From assembly GCA_964035545.1 (NCBI GenBank), contig OZ037769.1, forward strand, positions 9,888,633 to 9,952,632: a DNA stretch of 64,000 nt, written 5' to 3'. The notes beneath the pieces are model-generated. The model was not told the origin of the DNA and did not search any database. It saw only the letters and a list, made by a program, of their open reading frames with translations. The stretch's first letter is position 1, and every line of letters starts with the position of its first letter. A program made the translations under genes and the position numbers. Below, piece after piece: positions 1-54,595 of this stretch. The stretch comes from Bugula neritina (lineage: Eukaryota > Animalia > Bryozoa).

Positions 1-1047
1 ACTCTGACTCTTGTAGCGAGCGTGCTCTGTGTCGAGCCTGTCGGGCACGTAGCCGCCTCTTCAGTCGCCCCACTGAGTCCTTCAGCTGGTATAGACCTGT
101 CGTCGTATCCAGCAGGTCAGGGGCCAGTTGCGTAAACTCGGCTTGTAGTTTTATAAGCCGCTCTTCTACATTAGCCAGTCGGCTAGGCCTTGGTGGGGTT
201 GTAGTAGTCTCTGTTATTGGGGGTATTGTTGTTCCTTCTAATTCGAGGGTGTTGCTAGGGTTGACGGGGGTAGGAGACGGGCCCTGAACCATAGGGGACT
301 TATGGTGGGCGGATAACAGCAGTACTTGGAACCCTGACGCTAGTGCGGCCAGGGTGATGGCCTTCTTGATGACTGGCTTGATGGTGTCCATGTACTGGGG
401 GAAACTGTCCTCATCAACAATATGGTTCTCTCCGGCGAAGCAGCTCAACTTATGGACTATCACAGGATACGGGTATACATCGTGGAACCCGCATGGGCAG
501 AAATGAAGTAGAAAATGGGCGTCTACATGCAGACGCAGGGAGCGGTGTGACGGGCACTCCTCGAAGCAGACCTGGCAGGTCCGGTGGGGTCCACTGGGTT
601 CCCAGGCTTCCTCAATTCTCCTTTCCGTCGTGGGTGACACCCAGCGGTGTCGTCGACGAAGCACCACGGGTAAGCCATTCTCCATTACAGGTTCTTCTTC
701 CATAGGTAGAGAGGTTGGCTGGTCCCGTGACCGGGAGGTGGTCACTCGAGTGTGATCTGAAAGAGTAACAGTGTTAAAGATTATACACTGAGGTACCGTC
801 GGCGTGTACAGCCTGACCGGTACTCTGTTCAGTTACACTCGTGATATTCAGGCTAATGAATAGTTGATGGAGAACACACTCGCTATGGCAGATTATTTAA
901 AATCAAAGTCGACGTGTATTCCCACCACTGTTTATCATTATCGAATCTCCAGCTCGCTAGCTAGTGTAGCTAAAGCTGACTGATGCAGTCTAGTTATCGT
1001 ACCAAAAACATAATTAACTCACCCTTCGATCCAGAATAGTAAGACAT
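1..1047 (-). CDS. Accessory zinc-finger/coiled-coil protein (ORF3) of copy A; predicted exons 1047-1023 and 756-<1
   Basis: Hand translation (missing from the ORF track because it runs off the window): CQVCFEECPSHRSLRLHVDAHFLLHFCPCGFHDVYPYPVIVHKLSC...RLANVEERLIKLQAEFTQLAPDLL, homologous to ORF3 of B and C. Donor AAGG|GTGAGT at 1022, acceptor ACTCTTTCAG| at 757. Confidence 0.8.
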
Positions 1048-2671: not shown

Positions 2672-2969
2672 TGCTCCTGCACTGCTTAGCCTTGTCCGTC
2701 AGCGCCATCCTGAGCTTGAGCAACGCCACTCTTGGTGGCCACTGTGCAACTTCCATCACATCTTGGAATTCTTGGATAAACTGCTCCACTGCTTCTTCGC
2801 CTGTGAAGGTGGGCGCCTTCAGCCGGTATCTGTCTTCACCATGCTCTCTAGGAATTCTCACTTCTTCTAACACTACTGGTTCCACAGGTATATCAACATT
2901 ATCTCTCTCACCTTCATTCAGTGGAATGGGTAGCTCCGTGCCGTCTTCTGCCATGACTGCTATACGCAA
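2672..2969 (-). pseudogene. Truncated gag of copy A
   Basis: YRLKAPTFTGEEAVEQFIQEFQDVMEVAQWPPRVALLKLR matches Gag of B; the match stops at a deletion junction near 2670-2690. Confidence 0.85.
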
Positions 2970-7493: not shown

Positions 7494-7618
7494 CAATATT
7501 CCGAAGGTCCATTGATCCGAAGGTCCATTGATCCGAAGGTGCATTGATCCGAAGGTCCATTATTCCGAAGGTGCATTGATCCGAAGGTCCATTATTCCGA
7601 AGGTGCATTAGTCCGAAA
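7494..7618. repeat. 16-bp subterminal tandem repeats in the left MULE TIR (mirror copy at 19867-19959)
   Basis: CCGAAGGT(C/G)CATT(GAT/ATT) units, about 7 on the left and 5 on the right. Confidence 0.9.
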
Positions 7619-9767
7619 ATTAGTAACACAGGATTATATCACTGAGAATATCATAAATTTCACTCACAATCTTGCTATATTATTGCTAGCTGTGGGTGGC
7701 ATACGTGTTGCCTACTTGTGATTGTTTAGCCTGAGATTACTTTATGAAGCTGTCTCAATTAAGGTTGCATTATCTATCAACTTTCCATAAATAAAGTACA
7801 CAGCAATCGATTTGCTAGCTTGTCAGCTAGCAAGCCTGTAATTAGCAGTCTATATGCGTCATTTCCATTTATAAAAAAAACTATATAAGCTATTGAAAAT
7901 TTCAAAAAGGTACCTCTGAGCAACAGGAAGATCTACAACATGGTTTTTCAATTTTACTTTAGGTGAGGTTTTATTTGGCAGCACTGAATTTTTATATACT
8001 AGTAATGCAGCCTCAGCAAAACAGTTACAGCTAAAAGGTTGCCCTTATCTACATATCTTGTGGAGTTGTTTGGTTTGGTGTATATGGTGTGCAGCTTTGG
8101 TTATTTAATTTTCGAATAGTGTCCAAGATGTTTATAGTTTTTTGTCTATAATGCTTATATTTATAGCAGAAAAACTTCAAATAAAACTCTTAAGGTCAAT
8201 GTAACAATTGGCTGATTATCAATATTTAAACTTCATGCTAATCATATAATATTTGACTACCCAACAAAAATAGTGTGTGGCAATGTATAGACAATTTTAA
8301 GCAAAGAATGTTATTAACTTTTCTCATCATTTCTTATTATTTTCAGATCTGTTGTGAATAAAAATTGATGTATTATATATGCTACAGGGTTTAATCATTT
8401 AGTAGCACAAGCAAGCCGCAAGCATTTCTTACTATCTCCCCTATTTTAAAGTTTGTGTTGAAGTGACAGGAGACAGAAATTTCAACTATTCAAACAAAGA
8501 AAAATAAAACAGCCTGAACATTTTTCTTTATTGTGTAGTATTTGAGAGTAGACTTGTCCAAATATTTGCTGCAGTGCAGAATTTATAAATAGCAAAGTGC
8601 TTTTGAAGTTACAGCCAAAGAAATAGGCTAATTCTAGGATCTTTGTATTAAGCTCAAACTAAAATACCCTTCTTGGCAGCTACTCTTTAGTAAATTAAAA
8701 GCCTGTAACCTTACTTAAACTTCCTCATTAAAAATTATAATGGAGATCAAAAGAAACCCGGCAAAAACCAGCTATTACCCCTTGTATACATAATTATAGG
8801 GATGTGTTCTCTTTTAGACCTTAGTAGAAGTAATTTGCAGTAACGCATAGTTTTCTCTGTAACAAGCAGTATATAAATAAGAAATTTTGTGAAACCCATC
8901 ATTCTACCATTTGAAAGTTACAGTTCAGCTAGGTAATGCTTGCGGAGCAGTTATACTACATTTAAATACTATAATAACTAAATACTACACTGATAGAAAA
9001 AGTGCGTGTTTTGACCCGAAACAGTAATAAAAAGTTGTGCAGAAGGTTGGAGACAGCAGAAGGTATGTATCTTTTTAAGTAGGATATTATTTTAATTTTT
9101 TAAGGCTCATAAAATATATTTACACTGTTTTAATTGTAGTTAATAGACTGTCAATTTTATGAGAACGTAGATAATTTTGTTTATGTAACAACTTACTAAA
9201 ATATGGATGTTTTTTTAAAATAATTTGAATCATTAAACCAAGTAAGTTATACTTATTTGTTGATTGAGAAAACTATCATAATGCCTACCAAAAAAAACAT
9301 GCGATGTCAAGTGGTCCTCCAGTATCAAACATCTTAATTTAATATTTACCTGCAAATTATTATTTTGCTTTGAAAGCAGCTTTATAGATTGTTAATTTTG
9401 TTACTTTGTTTTCAGGGATAGTGTTTGACCTTTACGTTAATATATATTTACGCAGTCATCATGGCCTTTATTCAAATGGGATTAAGAGGAGGGAAAATTT
9501 TGATTAACAATGGATACAGATACCAAAAAACAAAGTGACAAGTCATAAGATATTCTGGAGATGTTGGCGAACAGCCTGTAGAGCTTCTCTTCAAACTGAC
9601 TTGTTTAATCTAGAGGAGGAAAATCCTAACATAACAATATTGCAAGTAAGTCAATGCATTTTGATTGTTGAAACAGGAAACAAAATTGTCTATGTAATAG
9701 ACATATAATTTTGTTTTACCATTTTATGCTTGTGAATTTTAAAATTGCTACACTGGCCTGATGATAA

Positions 9768-10072
9768 TGTGGTGGCTCGTGGAGCTACCAGCAACACAAT
9801 ACGCAAGGTTGCGTATTGACCCGGAACAATGTATTAGCCAATTAGCTAGGCTGTTTTATGGGAGTAGTAGCAGCTTCGCGCTACTAGCTCAGTTGAGGAT
9901 AGTGCTGTAAATTAAATAGACGTGCGTATCATTACTGTTGTACATTAGATTTTATTATGTATTCTTGGATTAAAATATAACGATATCTACTCGACTTAAC
10001 TCGGTGAAGTTTCTCTAGTGATAAATAGACTCTCTTGGTGACACATCAACCCTATATCTGAAAATCATAACA
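9768..10072 (+). repeat. 5' LTR of copy B
   Basis: Direct repeat of 16909-17213. Confidence 0.97.
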
Positions 10073-10073
10073 G

Positions 10074-10091
10074 TGGTGGCAGCGGTGGGAT
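10074..10091 (+). promoter_or_regulatory. Primer-binding site, tRNA-Leu
   Basis: TGGTGGCAGCGGTGGGAT is complementary to the 3' end (ATCCCACCGCTGCCA-CCA) of metazoan tRNA-Leu(AAG/TAG), recalled from knowledge. Confidence 0.88.
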
Positions 10092-10105
10092 AGTGTATAT
10101 CAAAG

Positions 10106-10972
10106 ATGGAGACTGAAAATGCTAGAATGCAACCACCCCCAGTAGAAGGTGAGCGTAGAAATGCTGTTAATCCTGTGAATCGTGAAGGAGAAGAAGCTTA
10201 TAGACATTGCTTGAAGGCTCCCACCTTTACTGGGTCGGAAGATGTCGAACAATTTATACAAGAATTTAGAGAAGTAATGGAAGTTGCTCAATGGCCGCAT
10301 AGAGTGGCCCTTATTCAATTGCGGAGAGCGGTGACGGAGCAAGCCAAGCCGTACGGAGTGGGAACGGACGTAGACGGGATACTGGCTGCGCTGCGGGCCC
10401 GTTTTGGCACCTCCGTAATAGACGCTAGGACCAAGCTAGAGAGATTGTGCCGCAACCCGCGGACCTCGCTGCAAGAACATGCCGCGACGGTGAAGAAGCT
10501 GGCGCAGATTGCATATAGCGATCTGCCAGCACAACACCAAGAGCGTTACACCTATGACGCCTTTGTCCAGTCACTAAACGACCTGGGCCTAGACCATCAC
10601 CTACGAGCTAAAGGGATAACCAGAATAGAGGATGCCCTGAAGGCTGGAGAAGCTTACCTGTTGGCTACCCAAATGCATCGAGCACAAAGGAACCCACCAG
10701 TAGTTGGAGTCAGCGCTGCCAGGGCTACGACAGGCTCCGAAGCCCTCCCGCTGGAAGCCGAAGTGGACCGTATGGTAGAGATGCTGGGACAACTGGTAAC
10801 CATTCTGGCCGGTGCTGGCCCCGGTCAGGCCCTGCGGGTGCCCCCAACCCCTGTGGGGCAGGGCTGGAGTAGCGCTGATCAGGACCAGGGACAGAAAGGA
10901 CGACCCCAATACCAGGGGGCGTTAAACTGTCACGGCCCGCGGAACCTCTCCCTCCCCGCGGGCCGCAACTAA
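10106..10972 (+). CDS. gag: Gag of copy B (288 aa, no CCHC knuckle seen)
   Basis: First ORF after the PBS; capsid-like PTFTGSEDVEQFIQEF segment conserved in copies A and D. Confidence 0.88.
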   Translation: METENARMQPPPVEGERRNAVNPVNREGEEAYRHCLKAPTFTGSEDVEQFIQEFREVMEVAQWPHRVALIQLRRAVTEQAKPYGVGTDVDGILAALRARFGTSVIDARTKLERLCRNPRTSLQEHAATVKKLAQIAYSDLPAQHQERYTYDAFVQSLNDLGLDHHLRAKGITRIEDALKAGEAYLLATQMHRAQRNPPVVGVSAARATTGSEALPLEAEVDRMVEMLGQLVTILAGAGPGQALRVPPTPVGQGWSSADQDQGQKGRPQYQGALNCHGPRNLSLPAGRN

Positions 10973-13900
10973 AGGAGTATGGTGGAACGCGCCGTCGTCT
11001 GTCCGTACGGACACGGCGGAACATTCCACCCGAGTGGCAGGTACCACGCAGGACTAGTAGGCCCGCACAACAGCCCAGTACCTTCTCCCTGCCACTCGCT
11101 AACCGGTTTCACCGGTTACCTCGGGAAGAGGAGCCCGCCACTGAAATGGAGCCAGAAGGCCCAGTGGAGAGCCCCAAACCCCGCCGGCACCAACCTCGCC
11201 GCCGGAAGCCCCGTAAATCACGGGTGAAACCCCCGCCGTCCTGTCAATCCAGGACAGCACATGCGGGGGGGGTGAAGGTACAACCACATGGAGAGAGCTA
11301 TTTCCTACCCGGAAAGGTGGCTGGCAACGCCGTCACTTTCCTGCTCGACTCCGGTTGTACTACCAACCTTCTCAGTCGTAGAGTCTTTGAGGCACTGCCC
11401 CGCCGGGACAGGGATAGAGTACGACCGTATACTGGAGAACATGGCACCTTGGCAGACGGGTCATGTATCCCCTTTTATGGTATTATCGAGCTCCCTGGGC
11501 GTGTCCGAGATCAGGCTGTACAGGAGACCTTTATCATAGGTCAACTGGAGGAAGATGCTATCCTCGGAATGCCCTTCTTGAAGCAACACCAGTGCCGAAT
11601 AGATTTCAGTAAGTCGGTGGTGCTGATGGGCGGGCGAGAACTCGCCTGTGTGGATAAGTTTGGGCATCCTCTGGTGGGCGGTGTTCAGGTAGTTCGAAAC
11701 TGCACCGTACCCGGACGCTCCAGAGCTACTATCCACTGCCGAGTGAACAGCAACCGGATAGCCAGGCTCGGGGTCGTTGAAAGCGCGCACGAAAGGATCC
11801 AACTCGCCAGTAGTTTAAACCGACTGACTGAGCGAGGGGAGGTCTTAGTGCAGTGCGTCAACCCCTTTACCGAGCCCATTGAGCTCCCAGCTGGGTCAAT
11901 GCTGGGCCGGTTCCATTCCGTCCAGGAAGAGGACGTGGGCCCGTCGCTGGGTGACGCGACGGAGGCACCCCCTCGACACCCTATTCAGGGACGAGGGGCA
12001 ATCCCAACACATCTCCGGGAGTTATACGAAACAGCCAGTGGCGGCTGCGCGAGTAACAGAGAACGCCAAGCTATGGCTAAGTTACTACGCGACTACGGTG
12101 ATGTGTTCAGCAGCGGAGAGCATGACGTGGGACTGACTGGAATTGTCAGACACGAAATACCGCTGACTGCAAGGACAGTCCCTGTCCGGCAGCCCACGCG
12201 CAGGCTGGGGCCGGAGAAAGAGAAGGAGGTTAGCCGACAAGTACGGGATCTTCTGGACCGGGGACTGATAGAGCCCGCCCATAGTGCGTGGAGCTCGCCA
12301 GTCGTACTGGTCCGGAAGAAAGAGGGCAGTTGGCGGTTCTGTGTGGACTACCGCAAACTCAATAGCGTAACCATACAGGACGCCTACCCTCTACCTCGTA
12401 TTGACGAGTCATTGGACGCCCTAGCCGGCAGCAAGTACTTCAGTACGTTAGACTTGCTAAGCGGCTATTGGCAGGTTCCTCTGAGTCCCGACGCCCAAGA
12501 GAAAGCGGCGTTTATCACACGGGACGGTTTGTGGAAGTGGAAGGTGTTGCCCTTCGGGTTAACCTCCGCCCCAGCCACCTTCCAGAGGCTGATGGAACAA
12601 GTCCTTAGCGGACTCCATTGGAAGACACTGCTGGTCTACCTCGATGATGTCATCGTAATCTCTCCAGACTTCGAGACACATGTCAGTCGTCTGCAGGAGG
12701 TTTTCGAGAGACTCCGAGGTGTCGGTCTTAAGCTCAAACCTTCCAAGTGCGCTCTATTGCAGCCGGAGGTCAAGTACCTGGGGCACGTTGTCGGTCGAAA
12801 CGGCGTGGCAACGGATCCCGAAAAGGTACGGGCAGTAGAAGACTGGGTCACCCCCCAAGACTTGACCGGACTCCGGGCTTTCTTGGGGCTGGTAGGGTAT
12901 TACAGGCAATACATACCAGACTTTGCGGGCATAGCCCAGCCGTTAAACCGGCTCACCGCAAAGGGAGTGACGTGGCAGTGGACTGCAGTCGAACAAGAAG
13001 CGTTCGACCGCCTCAAGGGCTGCCTACTGACGGCGCCCATCTTGGCCTACCCAGACCCCACTCTGGAGTACATCCTAGACACGGACGCCAGTGACCAGAA
13101 TGTTGGCGCTGTGCTGTCACAAGTGCAGGAAGGCCGAGAGGTAGTAGTAGCCTACTACAGCAAGTCTCTCTCTCCCGCTGAACGAAATTACTGCACTACC
13201 CGCAAGGAGCTGCTGGCAGTAATCAAGTCAGTGAAGCACTTCAGACCATACCTATATGGCAGGAAGTTCCGGCTGCGTACGGATCATGCCTCGCTGATCT
13301 GGTTGTGCAAGAGAGCAGAGCCCTCTAGTCAGGTCGCACGGTGGCTCGAAATCCTAGCTGAATTCTCATACCGGATCGAACATCGACCGGGCAAGAGACA
13401 CAGCAATGCGGATGGGTTGAGTCGCCGACCTGACGGAGGTTGCAAACAGTGTCTCAACATCGAGAGGAGGGATGGAGGTCCCCCACGATGCGAGTTGGAG
13501 ACGCTGGCTCATCACGGAGCACCGTTTGACTGGGATCAAGGTCAACTCAGGCAAAGAGTTGATGAGTCCCCGGAGGATGTACAAAACCTCCGCGCCAACC
13601 CTGTACTGGCCGGTAACGTTCGAGAGCTGAAGAAGCTCCAAGAAGAGCTGCCTGGAGTTGTGGCAGACATATACCGGGCCAAAAGGGAAGGGCGACGACC
13701 CAGCGAGGAACGCATACGACAGGGATGCGCCGAGTTCCGGCTATACTGTCAGCGTTGGGACTCGCTGCGGATCGGGCAGGATGGGTTGCTAACCATCTCT
13801 CTAGCTGCCAGCGGCAGACACCCGGAAAGGAAGAGGGTAGTCTGCCCAACAGCCATCCGCCGTGAGTTGATTTGGGATACTCACAAGCAGGCCCACGCAG

Positions 13901-14961
13901 GGGTCAAGCGAGTGATATCCAAATTACGACTCCGGTGGTATTGGCCGCAGATGGAGCGTGACGTCTGGCTCAGAGTCAAACAGTGTGAGATCTGCCAGGC
14001 CAGTAAGCATAGCCGCCCCCCTGGTGAAGCAGGACGGCGGAGGCTATATGCTGGTAGGCCCTGGCAAGTAGTCGCTGTAGACCTGGTCGGACCCATGCCC
14101 CTGACCCCCAGAGGCAATAATTGGATCCTAGTACTAACCGACCACTTTACTAGGTGGGCGGATGCTCTGGCTATCCCAGATGCATCAGCCCCAACAGTGG
14201 CCAGGGCACTAGACCAACATGTATTCTGTTATTTTGGGCTTCCCGAACAGATACACTCTGATCAAGGCGCTCAATTCCAGTCTCAACTGATGAGCGACCT
14301 TTGCCACCTCTGGGGAGTAAATCAGAGCAGGACCACCCCCTACCACCCTCAAGGTAACGGGGTGGTGGAGCGCAACAACCGGATGCTAGGTGATGCACTC
14401 CGGAGTCTCCTCCTTGGACGAGGTCAAGAGGAATCGGATACGGTGTTGCCGCAAGTCATGCGTGCATACCGTAGCACCCCACACACCAGTACTGGTGAGA
14501 CCCCAAACCTCTTGATGCTCGGGAGAGAGACTCGTGTCCCTGACCATCTCACCTATCACGTTCCAGAGCAAGACAACTCGGTTCACGAGTATGCCAGTGA
14601 ACTAGTGGAACGGATGAAGGCCGCACACGAGATACTGCGTCAACAGCAGTGGAAGGTGCGGCACGAAGATTCCGATGAACCACCCCTCTATCAAACGGGA
14701 GATAAGGTGTGGATGGTCAATTACCGTAGGCGTCGCGGACAGGCTGATAAACTGAAGCCTAAGTTCGTAGGCCCCTACGTAGTCGTCGAGGCTATGCCCA
14801 ATCATACGTACAAGATTGAGCGCTCAGGACAGGTGTCTATCCAGAATGAGTCTCGCTTGAAACCGTATTGGGCTAGCCCTGACGGAGTGGGAGAAGCCCC
14901 CCCCGTTGTTAGAGCCCAGGAGGCAGACAACGACGCGCGGGCGACGGCGGCATGGACCTGA
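10873..14961 (+). CDS. pol: Pol of copy B (protease, RT, RNase H, integrase); first ATG at 11146
   Basis: LLDSG, LPFGL..APATFQR, YLDD, TDAS/KELLA/TDH/ADGLS, HHCC, D-D-E (VDLVG, SDQG, VERNN) and GPY motifs. Confidence 0.97.
10921..10977 (+). promoter_or_regulatory. Predicted -1 ribosomal frameshift signal (gag-pol)
   Basis: G_TTA_AAC (10921-10927) in the gag frame, 5-nt spacer, perfect 10-bp stem CGGCCCGCGG/CCGCGGGCCG (10933-10965). The pol (-1) frame is open from 10873. Confidence 0.8.
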
Positions 14962-15547
14962 ATACGAAGTGGTCATACCGCGGGAAGAAAACTTGGTGAG
15001 AGAGGAGCGGCAGCTTTTGTCAACAGAAGCGTGTCCGCCACCGCCAAGTCTAATTCCATCACTTCCAGAAACCGAGCCGGTTCCGGAAGTGCAAACCCCC
15101 ACGGAGGGAGGGGCTCCATCCGGAGAACAAGAAGAGCTGACCGCTAACGGTGAAGTAGAGACGCCATTAGAGGCCCCTACTAACGAACTGGCAAGCGTGT
15201 CACCCCCCCTAGAAAGGGGACAGCGTACGAGGAATCCCCCACCGTATTTGAAAGACTTCGTATGTGACTGCATTAGAAGCGGCGCACATGAAAGTCTAGG
15301 GGAAAACCGTACGATAGAATGTTGGAGTTGTGAACCCCACGCAAATATCAACTTTTGCGAGGGCGGAATAGTGGGAGGAATTAATGCGCGTAAAGCAAAT
15401 AGTTCCGACCTCGTGCCTCAGAAACGATGCTCAGCCTTTTCTTATGCTGACATCGCCAAAGGCAGGCGTATCTCACAACCAGCTCCAACCTTACCAAGAA
15501 CGTTGAGTATGGACATTAATACCGAGTTCCCAGGTAAGCCAGTATAA
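14906..15547 (+). CDS. Pol C-terminal tail of copy B, shifted out of the pol frame at a C8 run
   Basis: Contains RTRNPPPYLKDFV and FSYADIAK, shared with A and C; removing one C at 14897-14904 restores continuity with integrase. Confidence 0.65.
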   Translation: MLEPRRQTTTRGRRRHGPEYEVVIPREENLVREERQLLSTEACPPPPSLIPSLPETEPVPEVQTPTEGGAPSGEQEELTANGEVETPLEAPTNELASVSPPLERGQRTRNPPPYLKDFVCDCIRSGAHESLGENRTIECWSCEPHANINFCEGGIVGGINARKANSSDLVPQKRCSAFSYADIAKGRRISQPAPTLPRTLSMDINTEFPGKPV

Positions 15548-16638
15548 GTCTTGTATTCCTATTCATGGAAACGGGCTCGATGCCAGTAAATTCTGAACTA
15601 ATTCAGCAGATTGAATCAGAATTACTGGGAACCACGTTTCATGTGAATGACGATGAAGACACTGTAATGGCCGACGGTCTGTTAGACCTGGAGCTAGACA
15701 CTGTTCTTGGTCAGTCCACACATGATTCATCAGTTCCTCGAGTGCATTCCAAAAGCTGTGACTCTCAGACTAGCAACGGTCGACAGTCACTAGAATTATG
15801 TTGTAAAGATCCACCGCAATCTAACAATAATTCTACTTTTGTAGACACACTCGCGCCCGTCTCTCCGGGCATGCCTTCTCTAGAGATGGCGTGGGACCCA
15901 GAGCCGGCCCCAACAACTTCTACAACCAGGCAACTGCCACCCCAGTTGGAAGCAACCTCCAACTGGATTACCCCTGCCACAGAGAGAGAAATCAGGACCC
16001 ATCAAGGAGGTGAGAGTAATCGTGAATGCAACCTCTGCCAGCAGCGATTCACAACCCACCGCAGACTAAAAGTACACTTGCCGCAGCACTACATCACCAC
16101 TTTCTGCCCTTGCGGAGAATATAGCTACAATCGTGATTACCTATTGCGGCACCAACGTACTATGCAGTGTTATCAAGGGCATGTCTATGAAGTAGACGAA
16201 TCATCCTATCCTGCCTTTCTCAACGCCATCAAACCACTCATCACTGACTCAGCTCGGCTATCTCGCCTGGAGCAAGGCTTCCCTTCCCCGCGACCCATCA
16301 TCTCTGGAGCCGCAGATAAACCTACCCAGTCTACTAACTCTCCACCTCACAGTCCTCTACGCATGCCGCATACCTTTCCTCGTGTCGTACTACAGAGGGT
16401 AGACACAAATGCGTATACACTCCCTCCTCCCCTTCCATCCTCAGAGCGGAAAAGACACAGACAGCCGACTTCCTCTCGCTCATCCCCCTGGGCCCGCAAC
16501 CTACGTGAAGTAGAAGCTAGGGCGCACGACTTGGAGCAAGAAGTGTACAGACTGGCCCCACGGGTGCAGGCTGCATCCAGTGAACTCAAATATTTACAGG
16601 AGTCTATTAAACGCATGAAGCGTGCGGCCCGCAGTTAA
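15509..16638 (+). CDS. Accessory zinc-finger/coiled-coil protein (ORF3) of copy B; spliced 15509-15533 + 15845-16638 (272 aa) or unspliced 15565-16638 (357 aa)
   Basis: C-x2-C-x12-H-x3-H, then C-x-C-x12-H-x5-C, a Pro/Arg/Ser linker and a C-terminal heptad region. Donor CCAG|GTAAGC; acceptor CTAAC...TTCTACTTTTGTAG|. Confidence 0.88.
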
Positions 16639-16897
16639 CTCGAGTCTACCTACAACTCCATACTACTCATTCCCCTACCTCTCTGTGGCATTCCCTACCG
16701 TAATGGTGGCACGTACTATACATGTAGATAGGACCTTCTCTTACTTATTACTTAGTGCACGTTATACATACCTGTATATTTTTATCAGTTGTTGTTTTTT
16801 TTTGTATATACTTTTATACTGTTCTCTTACCCCCCCACAACGAAGTATACGTTTTTTTTATGTGAATTTTATTTTATCAGAAAGTGGGCTTTCTGCT

Positions 16898-16908
16898 GGA
16901 GGGGGCAG
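16898..16908 (+). promoter_or_regulatory. Polypurine tract of copy B
   Basis: GGAGGGGGCAG directly before the 3' LTR. Confidence 0.85.
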
Positions 16909-17213
16909 TGTGGTGGCTCGTGGAGCTACCAGCAACACAATACGCAAGGTTGCGTATTGACCCGGAACAATGTATTAGCCAATTAGCTAGGCTGTTTTAT
17001 GGGAGTAGTAGCAGCTTCGCGCTACTAGCTCAGTTGAGGATAGTGCTGTAAATTAAATAGACGTGCGTATCATTACTGTTGTACATTAGATTTTATTATG
17101 TATTCTTGGATTAAAATATAACGATATCTACTCGACTTAACTCGGTGAAGTTTCTCTAGTGATAAATAGACTCTCTTGGTGACACATCAACCCTATATCT
17201 GAAAATCATAACA
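16909..17213 (+). repeat. 3' LTR of copy B
   Basis: Direct repeat of 9768-10072. Confidence 0.97.
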
Positions 17214-20200
17214 ATAATTCCACCATCTGCATCGGAGGAGATGTAAATAAAATTGTTTAATTAAGGTAGCAGTGATAATGATAATAATAAGCTATTCATA
17301 TTTATCACTCTAAAACTGTATTTTTTAAATGTTGCCCCACTTTGACAAAATGCTTTGTTTCTGCTGTTACTCTTTCACACTCATTATAATTATTTTCAGT
17401 CACTCTGGGATCGTTCTAAATCTTCTCATACGTTTTTGAGGTGATCAAATATTGTTGGCATCATCTTGCCATTAATTTAATTATTGTTACTTCTAAATCA
17501 TACTACTTTAAGGTTGCAGAGCATAAAAGCCATGGTCAAGAAAATGACCTTATCAAATCATCAGGTTTAGCAGAGCAAATGCTAAAAGAGATAGAAAAAG
17601 ATCCAAGTAAGCCGACTAAAAGAATCTTTGATGAAACTGTTGGAAGGAACATACATGTAAATGTTGATCAAGTTCCAGAGTACCACAAAGTGAAGTCAAG
17701 ATTAGTGAGAAAGAGAGCGTCGCTGAACCCTGCCATACCTCACGAAATATCTGATGTGGAAATTGTAGGACAATGGAAAAAAACATGGACAGGAAGTAGA
17801 TTTCTCTCTCACCAAGATAATGAGTGGGGGATCCTTGTATTTGAGACCAAAAAAAATTTTAAGATGTTACAACAATGTAACATTGTATATGTTGATGGGA
17901 CATTTAAAACCTCCCCAATACCTTACAAACAGTTTGTTACAATCCATGGGTTATTTCATGGAAGACCTCTACCATTTGTAATGGCCCTCATGGGAGGAAA
18001 GACAGTGGGACAGTATAGGCAGCTGTTTCAGCATGTTAAAAGCAGAGTGAGAGAAGTAACAGGTCACCATTGGCGACCAAGAAGAATCATATCTGACTTC
18101 GAAATTTCTCTCATCACAGCTATTGAAACAGAGATGCCCCAAGTCCGAACATCCGGGTGCTATTTTCATTTTTGTCAAAGTATGTGGCGCAGAATACAGC
18201 ATGTTGGCCTCAGTAGGGGTTACAGGTGCTGTAGGCGTCTTCAAAAATGTCTAAGAAAATTTATGGCTATTGGATACTTGCCTCCAGCGTTGGTCCGACA
18301 AAACTTCAGATTACTAGCCACTTCTAACTCAATGCAGCAATTAGTAGCCCAGCACCCTGCTCTGCTAGAGTTTATTAGATACATGGAACAAAATTATTTA
18401 AATGGGCAGTTTCCTCTAGCTTTTTGGAATGTATTTAACAGGAATGGTGACTCAAGAACCAACAATAATGTTGAAGGTTAGTCTGCTATAGCTCAAATAA
18501 ATAATTGTTTTATAGTGGTTGAATTCTCAAGTAATATTTTGTGTCTATGTTAGATAACACCTGATGAATCTAAAATTGAAGTTATTAAAAAATAGGTGTT
18601 TGGTATTTAAAAATTGGAATTGGAATTGTTCAACAATTAACAGCTTTTGCTAACAATTTATTCCTATTGGTTAACTTTTAATTGTGTTGCTTTACTGTTC
18701 AAAAGAATTAAAGTTACTTGGCGTTCATCATCCTGAATAAAGTGCAAATTGGAGTAAGCGTTCCTGCATACACCTACGTTGGCAATAACAGCTTTATTTA
18801 CTAATCCCTATTCATAGTAGAGTATTAATAGAATTAATTTAAATTAATGGTATGGTAATAACTTTAGAAATGAAATTAAATGTATCAAAAAAACCCAAAA
18901 AAGCTTTGAATAAAATGTGTTCAACTAATCTGAGAATAAAGTAGCTTAAACAAATCTTGCATGCATTGGTTACATACCTAGACTAGTCAAAATAATCCTA
19001 AATATATACTAAGCAGCACTGATTAAAAATGTATTTATTTCAGGGTTTCACTGCAGATGGAATGATACTGTTGGAGTTCGACATCCATCCTTGTGGTATT
19101 TCCTGCGGAAACTCAAAGATGAACAACGACTGCTTAATGTTTCATCTCTTGCTGCAAGAAGAGGAGAGGCACCACTACCAAAAAGGAGAAAATGGAGAGA
19201 ACTGGAAAGGAGAATTGAAAGACTGAAGGCAGAGTACAATAATGGGGATAGAGATCTGCTGAATTACTGGAATGCTGTAACTCATGCAATAAAAACATAT
19301 GTTTAAATGACTAAAATTACATTCCAGATAGTATTAAATTTTTACTGATGTTTTAATTTGTGAAAATAGTTTATTTTATATAATGCATCATTGTTCACAT
19401 GAAACTAGATTTTGGTGTACACGCACAGTTAGATGTATATCATATGCTATAATTATTATAGATACAAATCCACTGAAAATATATTTAATAAAATTGTGCA
19501 TATATTTATTTCAATTAACCATGTTGTAGATCTCGGTGTTGCTCAGAGGAACTTTTTTGAAATTTTCATAGCTTTTTACAGATTTTCTATAAATAAGTGA
19601 TTTATCCACTAAAAATTCAATACTGATGCATATAGACTACTAATTACAGGCTTGCTAGCTGACAAGCTAGCAAATCGATTGCTGTGTACTTTATTTATGG
19701 AAAGTTGATAGATAATGCAACCTTAATTGAGACAGCTTCATAAAGTAATCTCAGGCTAAACAATCACAAGTAGGCAACATGTATGCCACCCACAGCTAGC
19801 AATAATATAGCAAGATTGTGAGTGAAATTTATGATATTCTCAGTGATATAATCCTGTGTTACTAATTTTCGGACTAATGCACCTTCGGAATAATGGACCT
19901 TCGGATCAATGCACCTTCGGAATAATGGACCTTCGGATCAATGCACCTTCGGAATATTGCTCCGTCCCCGTTTTGAACACCACATCAGTTGCGTGACAGC
20001 ATAACAGCATAACCAGTGGAGAAAAGAATCATACATACCGATAGATCAGTGGGAACTTGTGAGTGTGTCAGAGTAGTGTCTTGTTGCGTGTCTCTGAAAA
20101 TAAAGTATGAATTTGAATACACTACAAATTTGCAAACGTTTATTTCTGTAGTAATTTGTGCAATTACTGTGCGTGAGTTCCTAGCTTGTAATTATAGTTT

Positions 20201-20802
20201 ATGTATCCACATCAATAAAGGAGCTCTCAATAAGATTAGACGAGGTTTATTTACTACTAAATACAATAAAGAGATATAAAAGCACACGGATTAAAAACAC
20301 TACATCTTTACTATTCTAGTACGCTCTCTCTACTACTCTATACATCGCTGGGGGTTATCACATGACGCGCTCTTATTGGCTAAGGGGACTTGGGGGACGC
20401 GCGTATTACGTACTCACTACACCGCCCCCCCCCAGCAGAAAGCCCTACTTTCTGATAACACAGATACAGTTAGTACTAATACAAAAATATTACAAAAAAA
20501 AACTATAAGACTGAGAGAGCGTATGGTACATAAAAGAAAGAAACACAACTATATACAGTAAAAAAAATATAGAAAAATATAACAATATAAACACACACTA
20601 TGACACTGACGGGAGAGGCACTTATAGGTAAGCGGCCCATAGGGCTACGAAATGTATACTTGTAGGTTACTATATGATTGTCACACTGGGAGATTGTTCG
20701 TCAGCACCGGGCACGAGAGAGGTTTTAGATGGGGCACCACCTGCGGTACCATCAAGAGTGGAGGGTAGGTCGAGTAGGGGAAGAAGGTTTGGGGACGCCG
20801 TC

Positions 20803-21947
20803 TCAAGCGCTTCCTTTCATTTGGGCTACCGAGGCAGAGAGAGCCCGGAGTTCAGATGCGGCGGCAGAGATTCTCGGTGCCAACCTTTGCACTTCTTTCT
20901 CTAGATCCCGTATCCGTTCTTCTGCTTCTCTTAGGTTCCGGGCGGGGGCAGAGTGTCGGTTGGGAGACGAAGATGGCCAACGTCGTTTACGGGAGGGCCT
21001 GGGAGAGACGGGAGGAGAGAGACGCCATCGCTGTGGCACTTCGATGCGTCGTAGCACGACTCTGGGTATGGAGTCGGGGCGGGGCACTGTGCGTGCGGGG
21101 GGTGATGAACGGGGCATGGGTGGTCTCTTATATCCGGGTGGTTTAGGGCAGTGTCCTTGCGTGATGGCCTTGGGTGCGGGGAACTCCTGACGCAGCCGTT
21201 CGTAGCGAGTCGGGTCTGATATGAAGGGTCGGATGAGATCAAGGAAGTGTGGAAAGGAGTGTTCGTCAACTTCATAGAGATGTCCAATGTGACATCCCAT
21301 GGTTCGCTGGTGACGGAGGATGTAGTCCCTGTGGTAACTATATTCACCACAGGGACAAAAGGTGGTGACATAATGTTGGGGGACGTGGACCCGGAGTCGG
21401 CGAGGGGTGGTGAAATGGAGTTGGCACAAGCGGCAGGTGGTGCATTGGTCATCGCCTTTAGATTCTTGAATAAGTGCTTCCGTGTCTTGGGTAACCCAGC
21501 ATGACTGGCTTAAAAGTGGTTCTGGCAGTGTGACGGGGGCAGGTTCCTCATCCCAAGCCATCTCTAATGGTTGTGTGTCACGGGGAAGAGGAGAGGGAGT
21601 GATATCTAAAAGAGCAGAATTATTGTTAGATCGAGTGTGATCTTTACACCATAATTCTGATGACAACCGACTGTTCCTAGTCTGAGAGTCATACATCTTT
21701 TTAGATGGCACTCGAGGGACTGTGTCGTGGGGTGTAGACTGACCGAGCGACATAACGTCAAGCTCCAGATCTAGTAGATCATCGGCCATTGTTATGTTCT
21801 CGTCCCCTTTCACGTAAGACTCAGTCCCCAGTAGTTGTGATTCAATCAGGGCGATTAAATCAGAACTAACTGATGGTAGACCTGATTCCATGAGTGGGAA
21901 TGTTAGGTCAAAGCAAGCTTACCTGAGAACCCGGTATTTGTAATCAT
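20803..21947 (-). CDS. Accessory zinc-finger/coiled-coil protein (ORF3) of copy C; spliced 21947-21923 + 21605-20803 (275 aa) or unspliced 21891-20803 (362 aa)
   Basis: CRLCQLHFTTPRRLRVHVPQHYVTTFCPCGEYSYHRDYILRHQRTMGC and RNLREAEERIRDLEKEVQRLAP. Donor TCAG|GTAAGC; acceptor CTAAC...TTCTGCTCTTTTAG|. Confidence 0.88.
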
Positions 21948-24593
21948 ACTCAGCGTTCAAGCTTGGATGTCCGTGGATTGAGTTTGGATGCGTCTGCCTT
22001 TGACAACGTCAGCGTACGAAAAGGCTGGGCAGCGTGGTTGTTGCGCACGGCTAGAACTATTTGCCCCGGGCGTAGTAGTTTTGTTTACTACTCCGCCTTC
22101 GCAAAAGTTGAGATTCCGTGGTGTTCACAACTCCCATGCTTTGCTGCCAGTCCTTCCGTACGGCGCCCAGCTAGACTTTCGTAACTGCCGTTTGTAACGC
22201 GGTCACATACGAAGTCTTTCAAGTATGCTGGGGGTTGTCTAGTACGCTGTCCCCGTTCCAAGGGAGGTGACGTATTAGCTGGGGAGGAGGGTGTAGTTGT
22301 TGGTCGGGGCGGTGTACTCACTGGTGGGCTATTTTGTTCCACTTGTGGTGTTTCCGGCCCGTCGTTGGTGATGGCATTTCCCTCTCCGCTGTCACCGGAT
22401 GGAGCCCCTCCCACGGGGGGGGGGGGTTTTGCACTTCCAGACGCGGATGCGGATCCGGAAGTGGTGGGGGTAGACTTGGTATTGGGGGCGGTGGGCGCAC
22501 TTCCGTTGATGGGAGTGGCGTTTCTTGCCTCACCAAGTCCTCCTCCCGCGGCACAACCACTTCGTATTCTGGTCCATGCCGTTGTCGCCCGCGCGTTGCT
22601 GTCTGCCTCCTGGGCTCCAACAACGGAGGGGGGCTGCTCCTGCTGCTCCTGGGCTGGCCCAATACGGTTTCAAGCGAGCTTCATTCTGGACAGAGACCTG
22701 TCCAGAGCGCTCCAACTTGTACGTATGATTGGGCATCGCCTCGACTACTACGTAGGGTTCCACGAACTTAGGTTGGAGCTTAGCCGCTTGTCCTCGACGC
22801 CTACGGTAGTTGATCCTCCACACCCAGTCCCCAGTTTAATAGAGGGGTGGTTCCTGAGAGTCCTCCTGCCGTACCTGCCACTGCTTTGCTCGCAGTATTT
22901 CGTGTGCGGCTCTCAGGTCCTCTATCAATTTGCTGGCATACTCGTGGATGGTATAGTCTTGCTCTGGGATGTGGTATGTGAGGTGGTCGGGCACTCGCGT
23001 CTCTCGACCAAGCATCAGGAGGTTAGGGGTTTCCCCCGTACTGGTGTGTAGTGTACTACGATAGGCCCGCATGACTTGCGGTAGTGCCGTATCCCATTCC
23101 TCCTGACCCCGGCCGAGGAGCAGACTGCGGAGTGCTTCGCCCAACATGCGGTTGTTGCGTTCTACCACCCTGTTGCCCTGAGGATGGTATGGAGTGGTCC
23201 TGCTTTGGTTTACTCCCCAGAGGCGGCAGAGGTCGCTCAACAGTTGAGACTGGAATTGAACTCCCTGATCCGAATGTATCTGTTCGGGTAGTCCGAGGTA
23301 GCAGAATACATTTTAGTCTAGCACCCTGGCCACCGTCGGGGCGGACGCATCTGGAATAGCCAGGGCGTCCGCCCACCGTGTAAAGTGGTCGGTTAATACT
23401 AGTATCCAACTGTTTCCTCTGGGGGTGAGGGGCATGGGTCCGACTAGGTCAACAGCTACCACCTGCCATGGCCTTCCAGCATATAGCCTACGCCGTCCCG
23501 CTTCGCCAGGGAGACGGCCATGCTTGCTGGCCTGGCAGATTTCGCATTGTTTGACTCTAAGCCATACATCACGCTCCATGCCGGGCCAGTACCACCGGAG
23601 CTGTAACTTGGAGAGCACCCTTTTTACCCCGGCGTGGGCCTGTTTGTGGGTGTCCCATACTAACTCCCGGCGTATGGCGGCTGGGCAGATCACCCTCTCT
23701 CTCCCGTACTGGCTGTTGTAGGCGGCCACTGTGATGGTCAGCAGACCATCTGGCCCGATCCGCAGGGAGTCCCAACGTTGGCAGTATAACCGTAACTCGG
23801 TGCATCCCTGCCGCAGTTGTTCTTCGCTGGGTTGTCGCCCCTCTTTTTTGGCCCGATACACGTCGGCTACTACTCCGGGGAGGTCCTCTAGGAGTCTTCG
23901 TAGCTCTCTGACGTTATCAGCCAAGACAGGATTGGCACGGAGGCTTTGGATAGTCTCCGGGGGCGTAGTGGCCTTCTGTAGGAGTTGACCCTGGTCCTAG
24001 TTATACTCTTTTCCAGGGTGGTCCAGTGCCCTCAACTCGGATTTTGGGGGACCCCCATCCCTCTTCTCGATGTTGAGGCACTGTTTGCACCCCTCGTCCG
24101 GCCGCCGACTCAGTCCGTCAGCATTGCCGTGCTTCTTACCGGGCCGATGCTCGATCCGGTAAGAACTCGGCCAGGACCTCGAGCCATCAGGCGACTTGGC
24201 TGGACAGTTCTGCTCTTTTGCACAATCAAATCAAGGAGGCGTGGTCGGTCCGCAAGCGGAACTTCCTGCCGTATAGATAAGGTCTAAAATGCTTCACCGA
24301 CTTGATTACTGCCAGCAGTTCCTTTCGGGTAGTGCAGTAATTTCGTTTGGTGGGTGAGAGAGACTTGCTGTAGTAGGCCACGACTACTTCGCGGCCCTCC
24401 TGCACCTGGGACAGCACAGCGCCGACGTTTTGGTCACTGGCGTCGGTATCTAGGATATACTCCAGGGCAGGGTCTAGGTAGGCTAAGATAGGGGCCTCTA
24501 GTAGGCGGCCCTTGAGGCAGTCAAACGCTCTCTGTTCGACGGGAGTCCACTGCAAGGTCACCCCCTTTGCAGTGAGCCGATTTAACGGCTGCG

Positions 24594-24597
<4 letters not shown>
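21948..24597 (-). pseudogene. Disrupted pol of copy C
   Basis: RNase H and integrase motifs split over several ORFs by stops and frameshifts. Confidence 0.9.

Positions 24598-24657
<60 letters not shown>
24595..24657. repeat. (TA)n microsatellite
   Basis: About 31 TA units. Confidence 0.97.
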
Positions 24658-26009: not shown

Positions 26010-26278
26010 GGGTGTGACTAAATGGGTGACCACCCGGTGTCGCGGTCCGTGACACCCTTTTTAGTCATAAGGGGTGTTGACTAAAATGGGTGTCGTGAAT
26101 AATTTCCTTTTTATTTTCAGATTTTTAGACATTTGTAGCCGCTGATATCGTTATTAAATATATCTACAGTGAATAATGAGCATTTCACAATCGCTTAAAC
26201 CAAAAAACATGAAAAAATAATGATTAAATTAAATTAATTTCAACAAGAAATAAACCCGATAAGAGTTATCTTTCCTTA
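26010..26278 (+). repeat. Orphan copy of one arm of the foldback element at 39348-41031
   Basis: GGGTGTGACTAAA..GGGTG..CCACC..GCGGTCCGTGACACCC... is collinear with 39348-39620. Confidence 0.8.
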
Positions 26279-26837
26279 TAATATAGCTAGCATATTATAT
26301 TTCCAACATGAAACTAGAGTTGGAGTAGGTGTGATTTAGGAAGCCATCACAATTAATTTTGTTGTTACTTATTTCAAGTTACTGTTCCTGCAAAATTCTA
26401 TTAACTACAAAGCTTCACAGTGCCATACTTTCTCTCCGAGTGTCATACTTTTAATATAACTATAAGCAAATAAAATATTATTATACATTTTGTATGTTGA
26501 GTTAAATTTAATCATAATGATTATCATCATGATAATTTTAAAATTAAATGATTGCTGTTGATGATGTTATGGTGATGATGATAATCTTCAGCATGATAAA
26601 ATTAAGTGTTCAATAATCATAATGAGAATGACAATCATAAGCCTAAGAGTAATCATAACTATTATTTTTATTTTAACTTTCATTTTGATTTGGTTGTACT
26701 TGTAATTTGAGTGAGACTAAGAGTAAAAGTAATCATAAAATTAAATGGTTCAACTAACAGTTAGTGCTACACTTACTTGTTACTAAGTCAGTTGCTGTAG
26801 ATCAAGATGAAGATGTAACACCAACTAACACTGACAG

Positions 26838-26895: not shown

Positions 26896-29800
26896 AGTAG
26901 AGTATTAGTATGATGTCTGCCTACAGCTGTTTGTGAGTAGCTTGATGACTACTGAGTCCTATCAGTGATCTGCATATGCAGTCACAGCGAAATCATTTGA
27001 GGTCATCACTCGGTGTGTCTATAGAGCTAAGCCTTCTTGCGGCCAGCTCTAAGTTCGTCTCTGTGTCGCATTCTTTCCTCTTTAAAGATTTGCATGCATT
27101 TATGAACCATAGATCTCCATTTGGTCCTCCTTGCGGCATTTCATTCCCAGGTCTCTGTTCTGATGTGAGAGCATTTCATACTGTCTTTGAGACAGTCTTT
27201 AAAGCACTTCCTCTGTTCTCCTTGCAATCTTTTACCTATTTGTAGCTCCCCATAAAAGATCTGTTTAGAAAGTCTGTGTCCTTTCATTCTCACTAAATGT
27301 CCCGACCAACGAAGTCTGTTCTTGATGGTGAAGCTTTCAAGGCTTGGAATATTTGTTTGTTGGTATACGCTGTTATTAGTGCGCTTGTCAGTCCATTTGA
27401 TGTCCAGTATTCCTCGCAATTTCCTCACGTGATGATTTTCTAGCTTTTTTATATCAGTACTGTAGGTAGCTCGTGTCTCAGTTGCATACAGAAGTGTTGG
27501 TATGATGACAGCCTTGTTCACTTTCAGCTTTGTGCTTACCTGCAGGTTGGAATTGTCAAAGACACTCTGCCTCAGCTTGCTGTAAGCAATACTAGCAGCT
27601 TAAAGACGTCTGTCAATCTCTCTCCTCAGTCTGGCCTTTGATGACAAGTTGCTTCTTAAGTACACAAAATCGTCAACAGGGCACAGTGTTTCACCCCCAG
27701 CAACAATAGTGGGAGGGTCAACATTTTTTCCTGGTTTTGGTTGGCAGATAACTTGTGTCTTCTTCGCATTTAGCTTCAGTTCAAGAGAGTTGTAAGCCTT
27801 CTCGAATGCAGTCATGGCAGCTTGAAGATGTTTTTCAGAATCCACCACTAGAGCATTGTCATCAGCATACTGCAACTCAAGGACTGATGTCTCTGATGTT
27901 AGTGTCTTGGCACGCAGTCTTTACAGGTTAAACAGGTCCCCGATATAGTTTAGTCCGATGCCTGTAGGAAGTTCTTGTTTCACAAGGTACAGCACAGCAA
28001 ACAAGTAGATAGAGAACAGCATTGGAGCTATAACACAGCCCTCTTTTACACCAGTTTGCACCTTGAAAGATTCTGATTTTTGGCCATTAACTAGGACAGA
28101 TGCTTCCATCTGATCATAAAGGAGACGGACCATTGTCAAAAACTTCAGGGGACATCCAATCTTTCCAAGTATGGTCTAGAGCAGGGGTGTCCAACCTTTT
28201 CAAACTGAGGGCCACAGAAATAGAATATTTCATGGTGAGGGCCACATTGTAAGCTTCAGCTTGTGCTGGGGGCCACAGCATTAGTATTTTTCAAACTACT
28301 TTATTCCAAAACTTTATGAATCATTACACAATTAAGTCTCAATAGTTACTGCCAGCTGCATTTTTTGTGTTATTTGTATAAATAAGGCATTTAAAAGATG
28401 GCTTTTCACTTTAATTCATGTAAACAGTGAAAAATTATTTTAGCTTTATGCCTTCGAGGGCCACATAAATGTAGGCTGGGGGCCACATCCGGCCCTAGGG
28501 CCGCCTGTTGGACAGCCCTGGTCTAGAGGGATATTTTGTCCACAGTATCAAAAGCTTTTGTCAGACCGATGAAGGCCATGTACAGGTCCTGATGCTGTTC
28601 TCTACACTTTTCCTGGATCTGCCTTGCAGTAAAGATCATATCTACTGTGCCTCTATCTGGTCGGAAGACGCACTAAGATTCGGGGAGAATGTCTTCTGTT
28701 ATGTGTGAAAGTCTTGTACATAAAATCCTGGCTAAGATTTTACCAGCTGTCGATAGGAGAGATATGCCTCTGTAGTTACCACAAAGTTTCACCCTTTTTG
28801 AAAATAGTCACAATCAGTGCGTCACGTAGATCGTCTCTATACTCTCAGTTGTCCAGATACGCAAGAATAGCTTGTGCAGTCTTCTGCTGAGTTCAGAGCA
28901 TCCATGTTTGAAGACCTCGGCAGGTATTACATCAGCACCAGCAGCTTTCCCACATTTCATCGCTTTTAATGCAGATTTCAATTCCAGAAAAGATGGCTCT
29001 TTTGACATCTGGTCATGGTACTGCAGCTGAGGGAGCTTGTGCAGAACTGTATCGTCAACCGTAGAGGTCTGGGTTCAGGAGGCACGAAAAATATTCTTTC
29101 CAATGTTGCCTGATATCATCCTTATCCTTGTAAAGTACACCGTCCTTGTCCTTGACTGAAGCTGATCCTCGAGATGTTGGTCCATACAGCTTCCTGGTTT
29201 CTGCAAAAAACTCTCGGGTTTTGTTTTGAATTGCTAAGTTCTGCAATTCCATTGATTTTTCAGTTCACCAGTCATTCTGCATCTTCTGAATACGTCTCTG
29301 TACATTTGCTCTCACTGCATGGTACGCCTGCTTCTTATCTTTATTCCTGAAGTCATCTTGCCATGCTGAAAATTATACTCGCTTCTGAGCCAGGAGTTGT
29401 TCAATTACATGATCATCTTCATCAAACCAGTCCTGGTGAAGTCTCTTCGAGTTACCTAGCACAGCTTTACAAGTCTCGGTGATACAGCCCTTCAGGCAGG
29501 TCCAATTAGTGTCAACATCTGGGTCCTCGGGTAGGTCTTTCAGTTTTTCGGTAATCTTAGTCTCAAGGTTTTGTCTCACTGCCGGTTGTTGCAGGAGTCT
29601 GACATTGAACTGTGGTAGTGATGTGTGTTTTACTCGGCAGTATGTGAGCTAAATTGAGAAGCTCAACAAAGCTTTTACAAGTCTATGGTCTGTCCAGCAG
29701 CTGTCTGATGAATCGATAGCCTTCGTAATCTTCACATCAGCCAAATCTCTGCATCTGGTGATTGTGTAGTCTATTGGGTGCCAGTGACCAAAACGTGGGT

Positions 29801-35421: not shown

Positions 35422-36128
35422 GCCCCGCGGCTTCGATGTAATTGATTGGCCAGCAAGTAGGCCTCACCCTCACACAGTGCGCCCTCGACTGTCGCGACTC
35501 CCCTTGCCAGAAATTGGTGATGGAGCCCTTAGTCGTTGATGGACTGCACTAACGCGTCAAAGGTGTACTGCTCGCGGTTAACCGGTAACAAGTTGCTATA
35601 CGTGATCTGTGCCAACTTCTTAACCGTGGCGGCATGCTCTTGGAAGGAGGTGTTGTAAACAGACCTGTTCCACTATGGAGGAGATGCCAATCCTCGTCCT
35701 CAAAGCTGCGAATATACCTCCGACATCAGGTTCCAGCTCATATGGTTCAGAAGTTTTTGCCAGCGACATTCGCAACTTTAGCAGAGCTACGCGGGGTGGC
35801 CACTGAGTGACTTCTGTCACCTCACTGGACTCCTGAATAAACTGTTCAGACTCAGACTCCTAAATATACTGTTCTACGTCTTTGTTGCTGATAAAGACGA
35901 AGGCTTTCAGGTCATACCTGTCACCAGGTAATTCCATGTGAGCCTCCTCACCTCCTAGCATGGGATTTGCGAGAACAACATTATTATCTGGCTCACTGTT
36001 TTCTTCTGGTGCAGACTGCGCCGGTTCCTCTGCCCCAGCGGGAGCTCTTCCCTCAAAGTCCGCCATTTTTACTTCCTCATTATAGTCCAGATGTAGTTAA
36101 GACAACATAATAAAATTCTACCGCTGCC

Positions 36129-54416: not shown

Positions 54417-54479
<63 letters not shown>

Positions 54480-54532
54480 CACATATATATACACATGCAC
54501 ATATATATACACATATACATACACCTATATAT

Positions 54533-54595
<63 letters not shown>

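Follow-up and report, generated by a model that had tools for sequence, protein, structure and literature searches.

The locus and its elements

The window, i.e., the whole 64,000-nucleotide stretch of Bugula neritina DNA that was analyzed, consists of AT-rich eukaryotic DNA with GC-rich islands, and contains a full-length Ty3/gypsy LTR retrotransposon (element B) together with related copies. The principal features of these elements are:

9768..17213, plus strand: element B, with identical LTRs and flanks bearing a 4-nt target-site duplication
9768..10072, plus strand: 5' LTR of B, 305 nt
10074..10091, plus strand: primer-binding site (PBS) of B, recognized from the sequence
10106..10972, plus strand: gag of B, identified by position and by tblastn to the other copies
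10879..14961, plus strand: pol of B (protease, RT, RNase H and integrase, by Pfam), the frame of which ends after the frameshift and before the Pol tail
14861..15547, plus strand: frame of the Pol C-terminal tail of B, which runs through the micro-exon
15845..16638, plus strand: ORF3 main exon of B, encoding a two-finger zinc domain, a basic stretch and a long C-terminal helix
16898..16908, plus strand: polypurine tract (PPT) of B, recognized from the sequence
16909..17213, plus strand: 3' LTR of B, 305 nt
1..756, minus strand: ORF3 main exon of A, which runs off the window
20803..21605, minus strand: ORF3 main exon of C

B displays the direct LTRs (305 nt each and 100% identical), target-site duplication, PBS and PPT of a Ty3/gypsy element, as well as the pol domain order protease-RT-RNase H-integrase. 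Its PBS is presumably of the tRNA-Leu type. The gag product has no Pfam match, and gag overlaps pol by 94 nt (10879-10972) in a different frame, an arrangement that suggests programmed frameshifting. The proline-rich Pol tail lies in another frame than the main part of pol and reaches 15547. A (1 to about 3300) and C (20415-24600), both on the minus strand, are decayed relatives of B. The same Gypsy family is represented by another decayed pol copy (31116-33850, minus strand), in which no ORF3 was detectable, and beside it lies a degraded LINE-like frame at about 27000-30500, delimited by eye.

Elsewhere in the window, a MULE transposase frame (Pfam PF10551) occupies 17420-18481 directly to the right of B, and a 343-nt inverted repeat pair (7519-7861 and 19624-19966), 97% complementary and partly made of 16-nt tandem units, lies on either side of B and the MULE frame. 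An Adaptin_N match (Pfam) at 48094-48654 marks a host exon. MITE-like nested inverted repeats are found at 39347-41032, with a second copy 13 kb away at 26020-26279, and minisatellite arrays at 48402-48965 (21-nt units), 54381-54670 (units of about 8-12 nt) and 60613-61290 (15-nt units).

The ORF3 zinc-finger protein and its relatives

A profile search with the ORF3 zinc-finger domain recovered 281 relatives, counted as clusters at the 50% level with E<=0.001 (150 listed), and their near-invariant residues form a CxxC-H-H pattern followed by CxCG-H. In the AlphaFold model, which has a mean pLDDT of 82, residues from about 31 to 150 form a domain predicted with confidence, and a helix of 49 residues occupies the C-terminal part. 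The C2H2 score of the B protein is 15.6 bits as against the Pfam cut-off of 25.2, and 7 of 92 ORF3 members match zf-C2H2_4 at E<=0.01, with the CxxC...HxxxH motif being nearly invariant. None of the Pfam matches of these 92 members is to an env family, and the model comprises a zinc domain and a helix, not an envelope fusion glycoprotein. No curated family was found for the zinc domain, and Foldseek searches of the PDB and viral libraries gave no fold match at E<=0.001 (best PDB E=0.18); the PDB sequence matches cover one finger, and the ESM Atlas returned unnamed clusters and C2H2 sets at 0.88-0.91, which are leads only. The zinc fingers, basic stretch, coiled-coil-like helix and optional acidic N-terminus (see below), taken with general knowledge, suggest that ORF3 is a nuclear nucleic-acid-binding regulator. 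That it regulates the element itself is a tentative proposal, which falls a little short of probable.

When 20 distant ORF3 matches were looked up, those bearing names were bryozoan or 'hypothetical'. Five relatives of the domain (P0174, P0240, P0310, P0313 and P0321) are encoded by genes annotated in two bryozoans, Watersipora subatra and Bugula neritina, with P0174 carrying two tandem ORF3 zinc domains; such genes might possibly represent either domestication or the source of the domain. In another distant relative, P0305, a Pol-tail-like motif is in frame with the ORF3 domain, which recalls Cer1, where the last cerv exon lies in the polyprotein frame (PMC10309623).

The acceptor preceding the ORF3 main exon

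The original prediction held that the element has to retain unspliced RNA while splicing part of it, and this is borne out, with the acceptor of the ORF3 main exon being supported; the splice signals would persist because Gag-Pol is encoded by the unspliced RNA only. The residues at the acceptor were compared in a B-type set of 61 proteins (59 homologs plus B and C), 48 of which have the motif preceding the acceptor. In these 48 the preceding residue is L in 26, S in 12, V in 9 and I in 1, and the pairs flanking the acceptor (a slash marks the splice boundary here and below) are L/D 25, S/D 12, V/D 8, V/E 1, I/D 1 and L/A 1. All of these residues are compatible with NYA/G, even though L, S and V are chemically unlike (a comparison at the protein level). 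As an interchange of Leu, Ser and Val is just what a YAG signal permits, the acceptor residue follows the YAG and not amino-acid chemistry. Among the A-type proteins, 32 of 101 matched, with S in 26, L in 5 and P in 1 (a mis-hit); here the pattern itself fixed the residue after the acceptor and only the preceding residue was free. The acceptor of the ORF3 main exon is thus real. The tracking of the YAG also argues against an absence of regulated splicing, whereby translation of ORF3 would begin on unspliced RNA, either at an inner Met or through re-initiation downstream of the Pol stop, and the spliced-type protein P0077 described next would be a chance deletion.

The donor at the start of gag

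The following exons at the start of gag are pertinent to the question of which donor is joined to this acceptor:

10106..10148, plus strand: gag start exon of B, 14 codons plus 1 nt, then donor G/GTGAGC in phase 1
2912..2954, minus strand: gag start exon of A, 43 nt, with donor G/GTGAGA
35952..36066, minus strand: gag remnant of a fourth copy, with phase-1 donor G/GTGAGG 115 nt after its ATG

A phase-1 donor G/GTGAG lies 43 nt after the gag ATG in both B (10148) and A (2912), and the starts of their Gag proteins are unlike in sequence. The original prediction makes no mention of this donor, which has better support than the micro-exon as the partner of the ORF3 acceptor. These are the only two instances of ATG-43nt-G/GTRAG in the window; the fourth gag copy also has a phase-1 donor, at 115 nt. 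Given the codon usage of B, a kept Gly-Glu would read GGT GAG with a chance of 0.11 per copy.

The splice product predicted from this geometry is represented by P0077, a natural protein of 261 aa from a 5320-nt JGI contig, in which A-type Gag residues 1-14 are joined exactly to the zinc-finger exon: its start agrees with A Gag 1-14 in 12 of 14 residues and then continues with the acceptor Asp of the main exon. Across 1351 Met positions in 307 proteins, the P0077 junction scores 63 versus 28 for the next best. The 307 proteins yielded this one gag junction, which is A-type and was read at the protein level; no B-type Gag junction was found among them, and when residues 1-45 of P0077 were used for a region search, P0077 alone came back, with no second gag-ORF3 junction. 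Since the predicted mRNA measures about 1.5 kb, well below the length of the contig, P0077 is likely a genomic copy of reverse-transcribed spliced RNA. Internal deletions and chimeras do occur among decayed copies, as in P0036, P0150, P0193, P0205 and P0291, and could in principle account for P0077 under the no-splicing alternative; however, the joins in these five proteins, as assessed by eye, are at other places, whereas that of P0077 falls at both of the independently predicted sites. That the start of ORF3 is supplied by a splice from gag is hence indicated by one A-type protein together with the 43-nt donors, and we regard splicing from the gag donor to the ORF3 acceptor as highly probable.

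In one thin RNA run (21 contigs), neither this splice nor that from the micro-exon (see below) is among the 15 joints listed, with 82 more beyond those; coverage is nil for the bin 15542-15795 and present for the next, 15796-16049, which with 21 contigs is no evidence either way. Locus searches of viral contigs, metagenome contigs and prokaryote genomes returned no further loci of the element.

The micro-exon as a possible second entry to ORF3

A second candidate donor lies just downstream of pol in each of the three copies:

15509..15533, plus strand: micro-exon of B, ATG, 25 nt, then GTAAGC
15534..15844, plus strand: small intron of B, 311 nt, also coding from ATG 15565
21947-21923, minus strand: micro-exon of C, 25 nt, then GTAAGC
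21606..21922, minus strand: small intron of C, 317 nt, coding from ATG 21891
1047-1023, minus strand: micro-exon of A, 25 nt, then GTGAGT
757..1022, minus strand: small intron of A, 266 nt, non-coding

The original prediction described an ATG exactly 25 nt before a donor in A, B and C, followed after 266, 311 and 317 nt, respectively, by a branch-like motif (YTRAY), a pyrimidine tract and a YAG in phase 1 of the zinc-finger frame, and every one of these coordinates and features was confirmed in the sequence. Its view that geometry is conserved and not sequence likewise stands, in that the A intron barely aligns with those of B and C, yet the ATG, donor and phase are kept. The proposal that the micro-exon is the exon partner of ORF3 fared less well: the acceptor is upheld, but the one junction that was found starts from the gag donor, and the micro-exon is joined to the main exon in 0 of 307 proteins.

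The window has 66 G/GTRAG sites on both strands. An ATG exactly 25 nt before such a site occurs three times, always at the homologous places of A, B and C, compared with about 1.2 expected anywhere; the 25-nt spacing is known from these three copies. Alignments of the small introns against shuffles gave z=24 for B-C, z=3.0 for A-B and z=1.8 for A-C. Treatment of the copies as three independent observations was rejected, as the homology of the B and C introns is clear, leaving about two independent lineages. Two further candidate regularities were dropped. A shared intron length class of 3n+2 was rejected as meaningful, with the A-type P0066 implying 265 nt if its start corresponds to the donor, and the idea of an acceptor conserved directly before the micro-exon ATG was rejected on sequence comparison.

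These data may also be read as an ordinary env-like plan, in which the gag donor alone functions, and the ATG and GT of the micro-exon either arise as by-products of Pol-tail sequence or form a decoy U1 site that dampens use of the acceptor. That the only junction found is that of the gag donor fits this reading, as does the small number of independent lineages. Additionally, donor-like words are common enough, at 0.65 per kb (5 in the internal part of B vs 4.5 in shuffles), and another such site is common to B (14995) and C (22534) within the Pol tail, likely kept through Pol coding alone. Against it stands the position of the micro-exon. In B the Pol tail reads through the micro-exon and includes its ATG in frame, but in A and C the Pol-tail stop precedes the ATG by 23 nt and 9 nt, respectively; lying beyond the stop, the micro-exon of these copies cannot be maintained by coding. 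Further, the ATG, phase and donor are common to A and B/C amid neighboring sequence that is close to unalignable, and each copy has an A at -3 of the ATG. The micro-exon Met is also kept at the same place in P0187 and P0284, a sister subfamily in which it runs straight into ORF3 in frame, with Asp in place of the donor Gly (at the protein level, in this one subfamily), a pattern expected if the micro-exon ATG matters. On balance, we judge the gag donor as sole donor to be rather unlikely, and lean, by a modest degree, toward the micro-exon as a functional second entry to the ORF3 main exon.

The small intron of B and C as a coding region

The small introns of B and C are fully open in the ORF3 frame (in B from ATG 15565 to the acceptor), which has 0 stops where the other frames have 8/7 and 10/11; the two introns differ in length by 6 nt. 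The A intron was originally noted to have an in-frame stop; stops in the ORF3 frame are indeed present, but there are five of them. Between B and C the intron has a pN/pS of 0.48 compared to a column-shuffle median of 0.745 (P=0.012), with selection weaker than that in the zinc domain or integrase. Synonymous divergence is also lower, and a nucleotide-level constraint may therefore add to the coding selection. The simulated chance of an open frame for the B-C pair alone is 7-10%, which is not decisive. The first 55 residues of the intron-encoded part include 13 acidic and 0 basic residues, and the inner Met is the first residue in 29 of 59 homologs. Searched as a profile, the intron-encoded part reached more distant relatives (P0202 at E=4.5e-12 and three at about 0.01) and had no match to any A-type protein.

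On these sequence grounds, the small intron of B and C is a region predicted to encode an acidic 93-residue N-terminus under purifying selection, and the label 'intron' needs qualification: the splice geometry is present in all three copies, but in B and C the same stretch is protein-coding. The coding intron looks ancestral and was probably lost in the A-type. An open and selected frame through the 'intron' of B and C is in line with the reading without regulated splicing; the five stops in the A intron, however, are at odds with it, and with the acceptor and P0077 also opposed we consider it very improbable.

Conserved blocks in the Pol tail

Two stretches of the Pol tail, upstream of the micro-exon, stand out in the alignment:

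15231..15372, plus strand: blocks of frozen synonymous sites with predicted hairpins, in B
22060-22225 and 1160-1322, minus strand: counterpart Pol-tail blocks

In the two blocks at 15231-15372, which were chosen by eye after the alignment had been seen, 18 of 20 codons for shared residues are identical in A, B and C, versus 46 of 99 in the integrase (Fisher P=0.0004); the next motif beyond them has 1 of 9 codons identical. Folding of six windows gave z values from -1.5 to -4.3, better than average, in five, and -0.2, no better than shuffles, in the sixth; covariation cannot be established from three sequences. Rfam gave 0 matches in B. The blocks might serve as an internal promoter, as in foamy viruses (PMC12789967), or as an RNA response element, the latter being conceivable because they lie inside the intron of the gag donor.

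The Pol tail also bears on a tat/rev-like scheme, in which RNA from the LTR would be doubly spliced through a Pol-tail middle exon bearing the micro-exon ATG. Two phase-1 donors and one strong acceptor suit such multiple splicing, and three acceptor-like sites are present in the B tail (14912, 15068 and 15212). None of the three passes the same filter in A or C, so that no Pol-tail acceptor is found in more than one copy among A, B and C, which argues against a middle exon. Moreover, the donor upstream follows the gag ATG and would generate a competing upstream frame. As the single junction found is made with the gag donor, in the manner of the simple gypsy-env plan, a doubly spliced scheme is not needed, and we regard it as quite unlikely. 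Of the complex-retrovirus-like strategy proposed in the original prediction, the acceptor survives, and a version with several isoforms and a regulator would be plausible, but the doubly spliced tat/rev route receives no support, the filter having found no Pol-tail acceptor shared between copies.

A proposed expression plan

Of the readings considered, we modestly favor one with two donors and one acceptor, in which ORF3 would be produced from spliced subgenomic mRNA, the micro-exon would furnish a second entry and the product would act as a nuclear regulator. First, with considerable confidence, RNA from the LTR would be spliced from 10148 to 15845 to yield a 278-aa product headed by 14 Gag residues, a step based on the A-type P0077 junction and extended to B through the identical 43-nt geometry. 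Second, and only somewhat more probably than otherwise, a shorter RNA starting in the Pol tail would use the micro-exon ATG and donor to give a product of 272 aa. The preferred source of this RNA would be an internal promoter in the fashion of foamy viruses; such RNA would lack the PBS and hence leave no retro-copies, which fits their absence. Third, retention of the small intron in B/C-type elements would give a 357-aa form with an acidic N-terminus, for which coding selection is observed and expression is predicted. Fourth, and more tentatively, with our confidence just below the halfway mark, the zinc domain, basic stretch and helix may bind the element's own DNA or RNA, with 15231-15372 as a candidate site, and thereby tune transcription or export of the unspliced RNA.

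A more far-reaching and speculative possibility, which we consider unlikely as a whole, is that of a widespread invertebrate Gypsy lineage with an independently evolved foamy-virus-like circuit. In it, one zinc-finger regulator in three forms (Gag-led, internal-promoter micro-exon-led, and intron-retained with an acidic activation tail) would act on the Pol-tail element to switch between early synthesis of the regulator and full-length RNA, and related domains would have been taken into bryozoan genes.

Comparison with known systems

To our knowledge, proven regulatory proteins are rare in LTR retrotransposons, and CERV is the clear case in print. The ORF3 family would be a second candidate regulator, apparently unrelated to CERV and much broader (281 protein clusters), and B, as a young insertion with identical LTRs, offers exactly predicted junctions. 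If the two donors, one acceptor and coding intron hold true, retrovirus-like complexity of expression arose outside Retroviridae; if the gag splice alone is real, the element has an ordinary env-type plan with a new cargo domain. No description of the ORF3 family was found in the literature, including the accessible parts of PMC5408684, PMC13524379, PMC11952523, PMC12440569 and PMC8556966; Repbase, subscription journals or supplements may hold one.

Among the closest parallels are other Ty3/gypsy elements. In Drosophila gypsy, a splice between gag and an acceptor located after pol provides the env gene (ORF3) with its start codon (PMC8096092), a plan that the present element very probably shares. 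Unlike that env, the ORF3 described here is a zinc-finger protein with no env Pfam match, takes 14 Gag codons and has an extra internal ATG-donor unit. CERV of the Caenorhabditis elegans Ty3/gypsy element Cer1 is likewise expressed from a spliced, gag-sharing mRNA for a post-pol ORF (PMC10309623); however, it has five exons, in contrast to one gag exon and a second donor just after pol here, and RNA export is proven for CERV (PMC10309623), whereas it would be a candidate role for ORF3. No homology of CERV outside nematodes is reported in that account (PMC10309623).

Among retroviruses, an internal promoter drives foamy-virus tas/bet, and the RNAs for tat/rev and tax/rex are doubly spliced (PMC12789967). 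The resemblance would lie in regulatory genes at the 3' end that are reached by more than one route. Those viruses are Retroviridae with env, whereas for the present element an internal promoter and trans-activation are proposals, and the filter detected no middle-exon acceptor conserved among the copies. The LTR elements of bdelloid rotifers, which are also invertebrate LTR retrotransposons with a third ORF, have captured non-env ORF3s that are reported to be typically expressed from spliced messages (PMC5408684). These are of GDSL, DEDDy, coiled-coil or transmembrane types, and the term 'zinc finger' is absent from the main text of that report (PMC5408684). Spliced ORF3s and one Rev-like regulator were already known in Gypsy elements, and the novelty here lies in the domain carried as cargo, in a second ATG-donor unit and in an intron that also codes.
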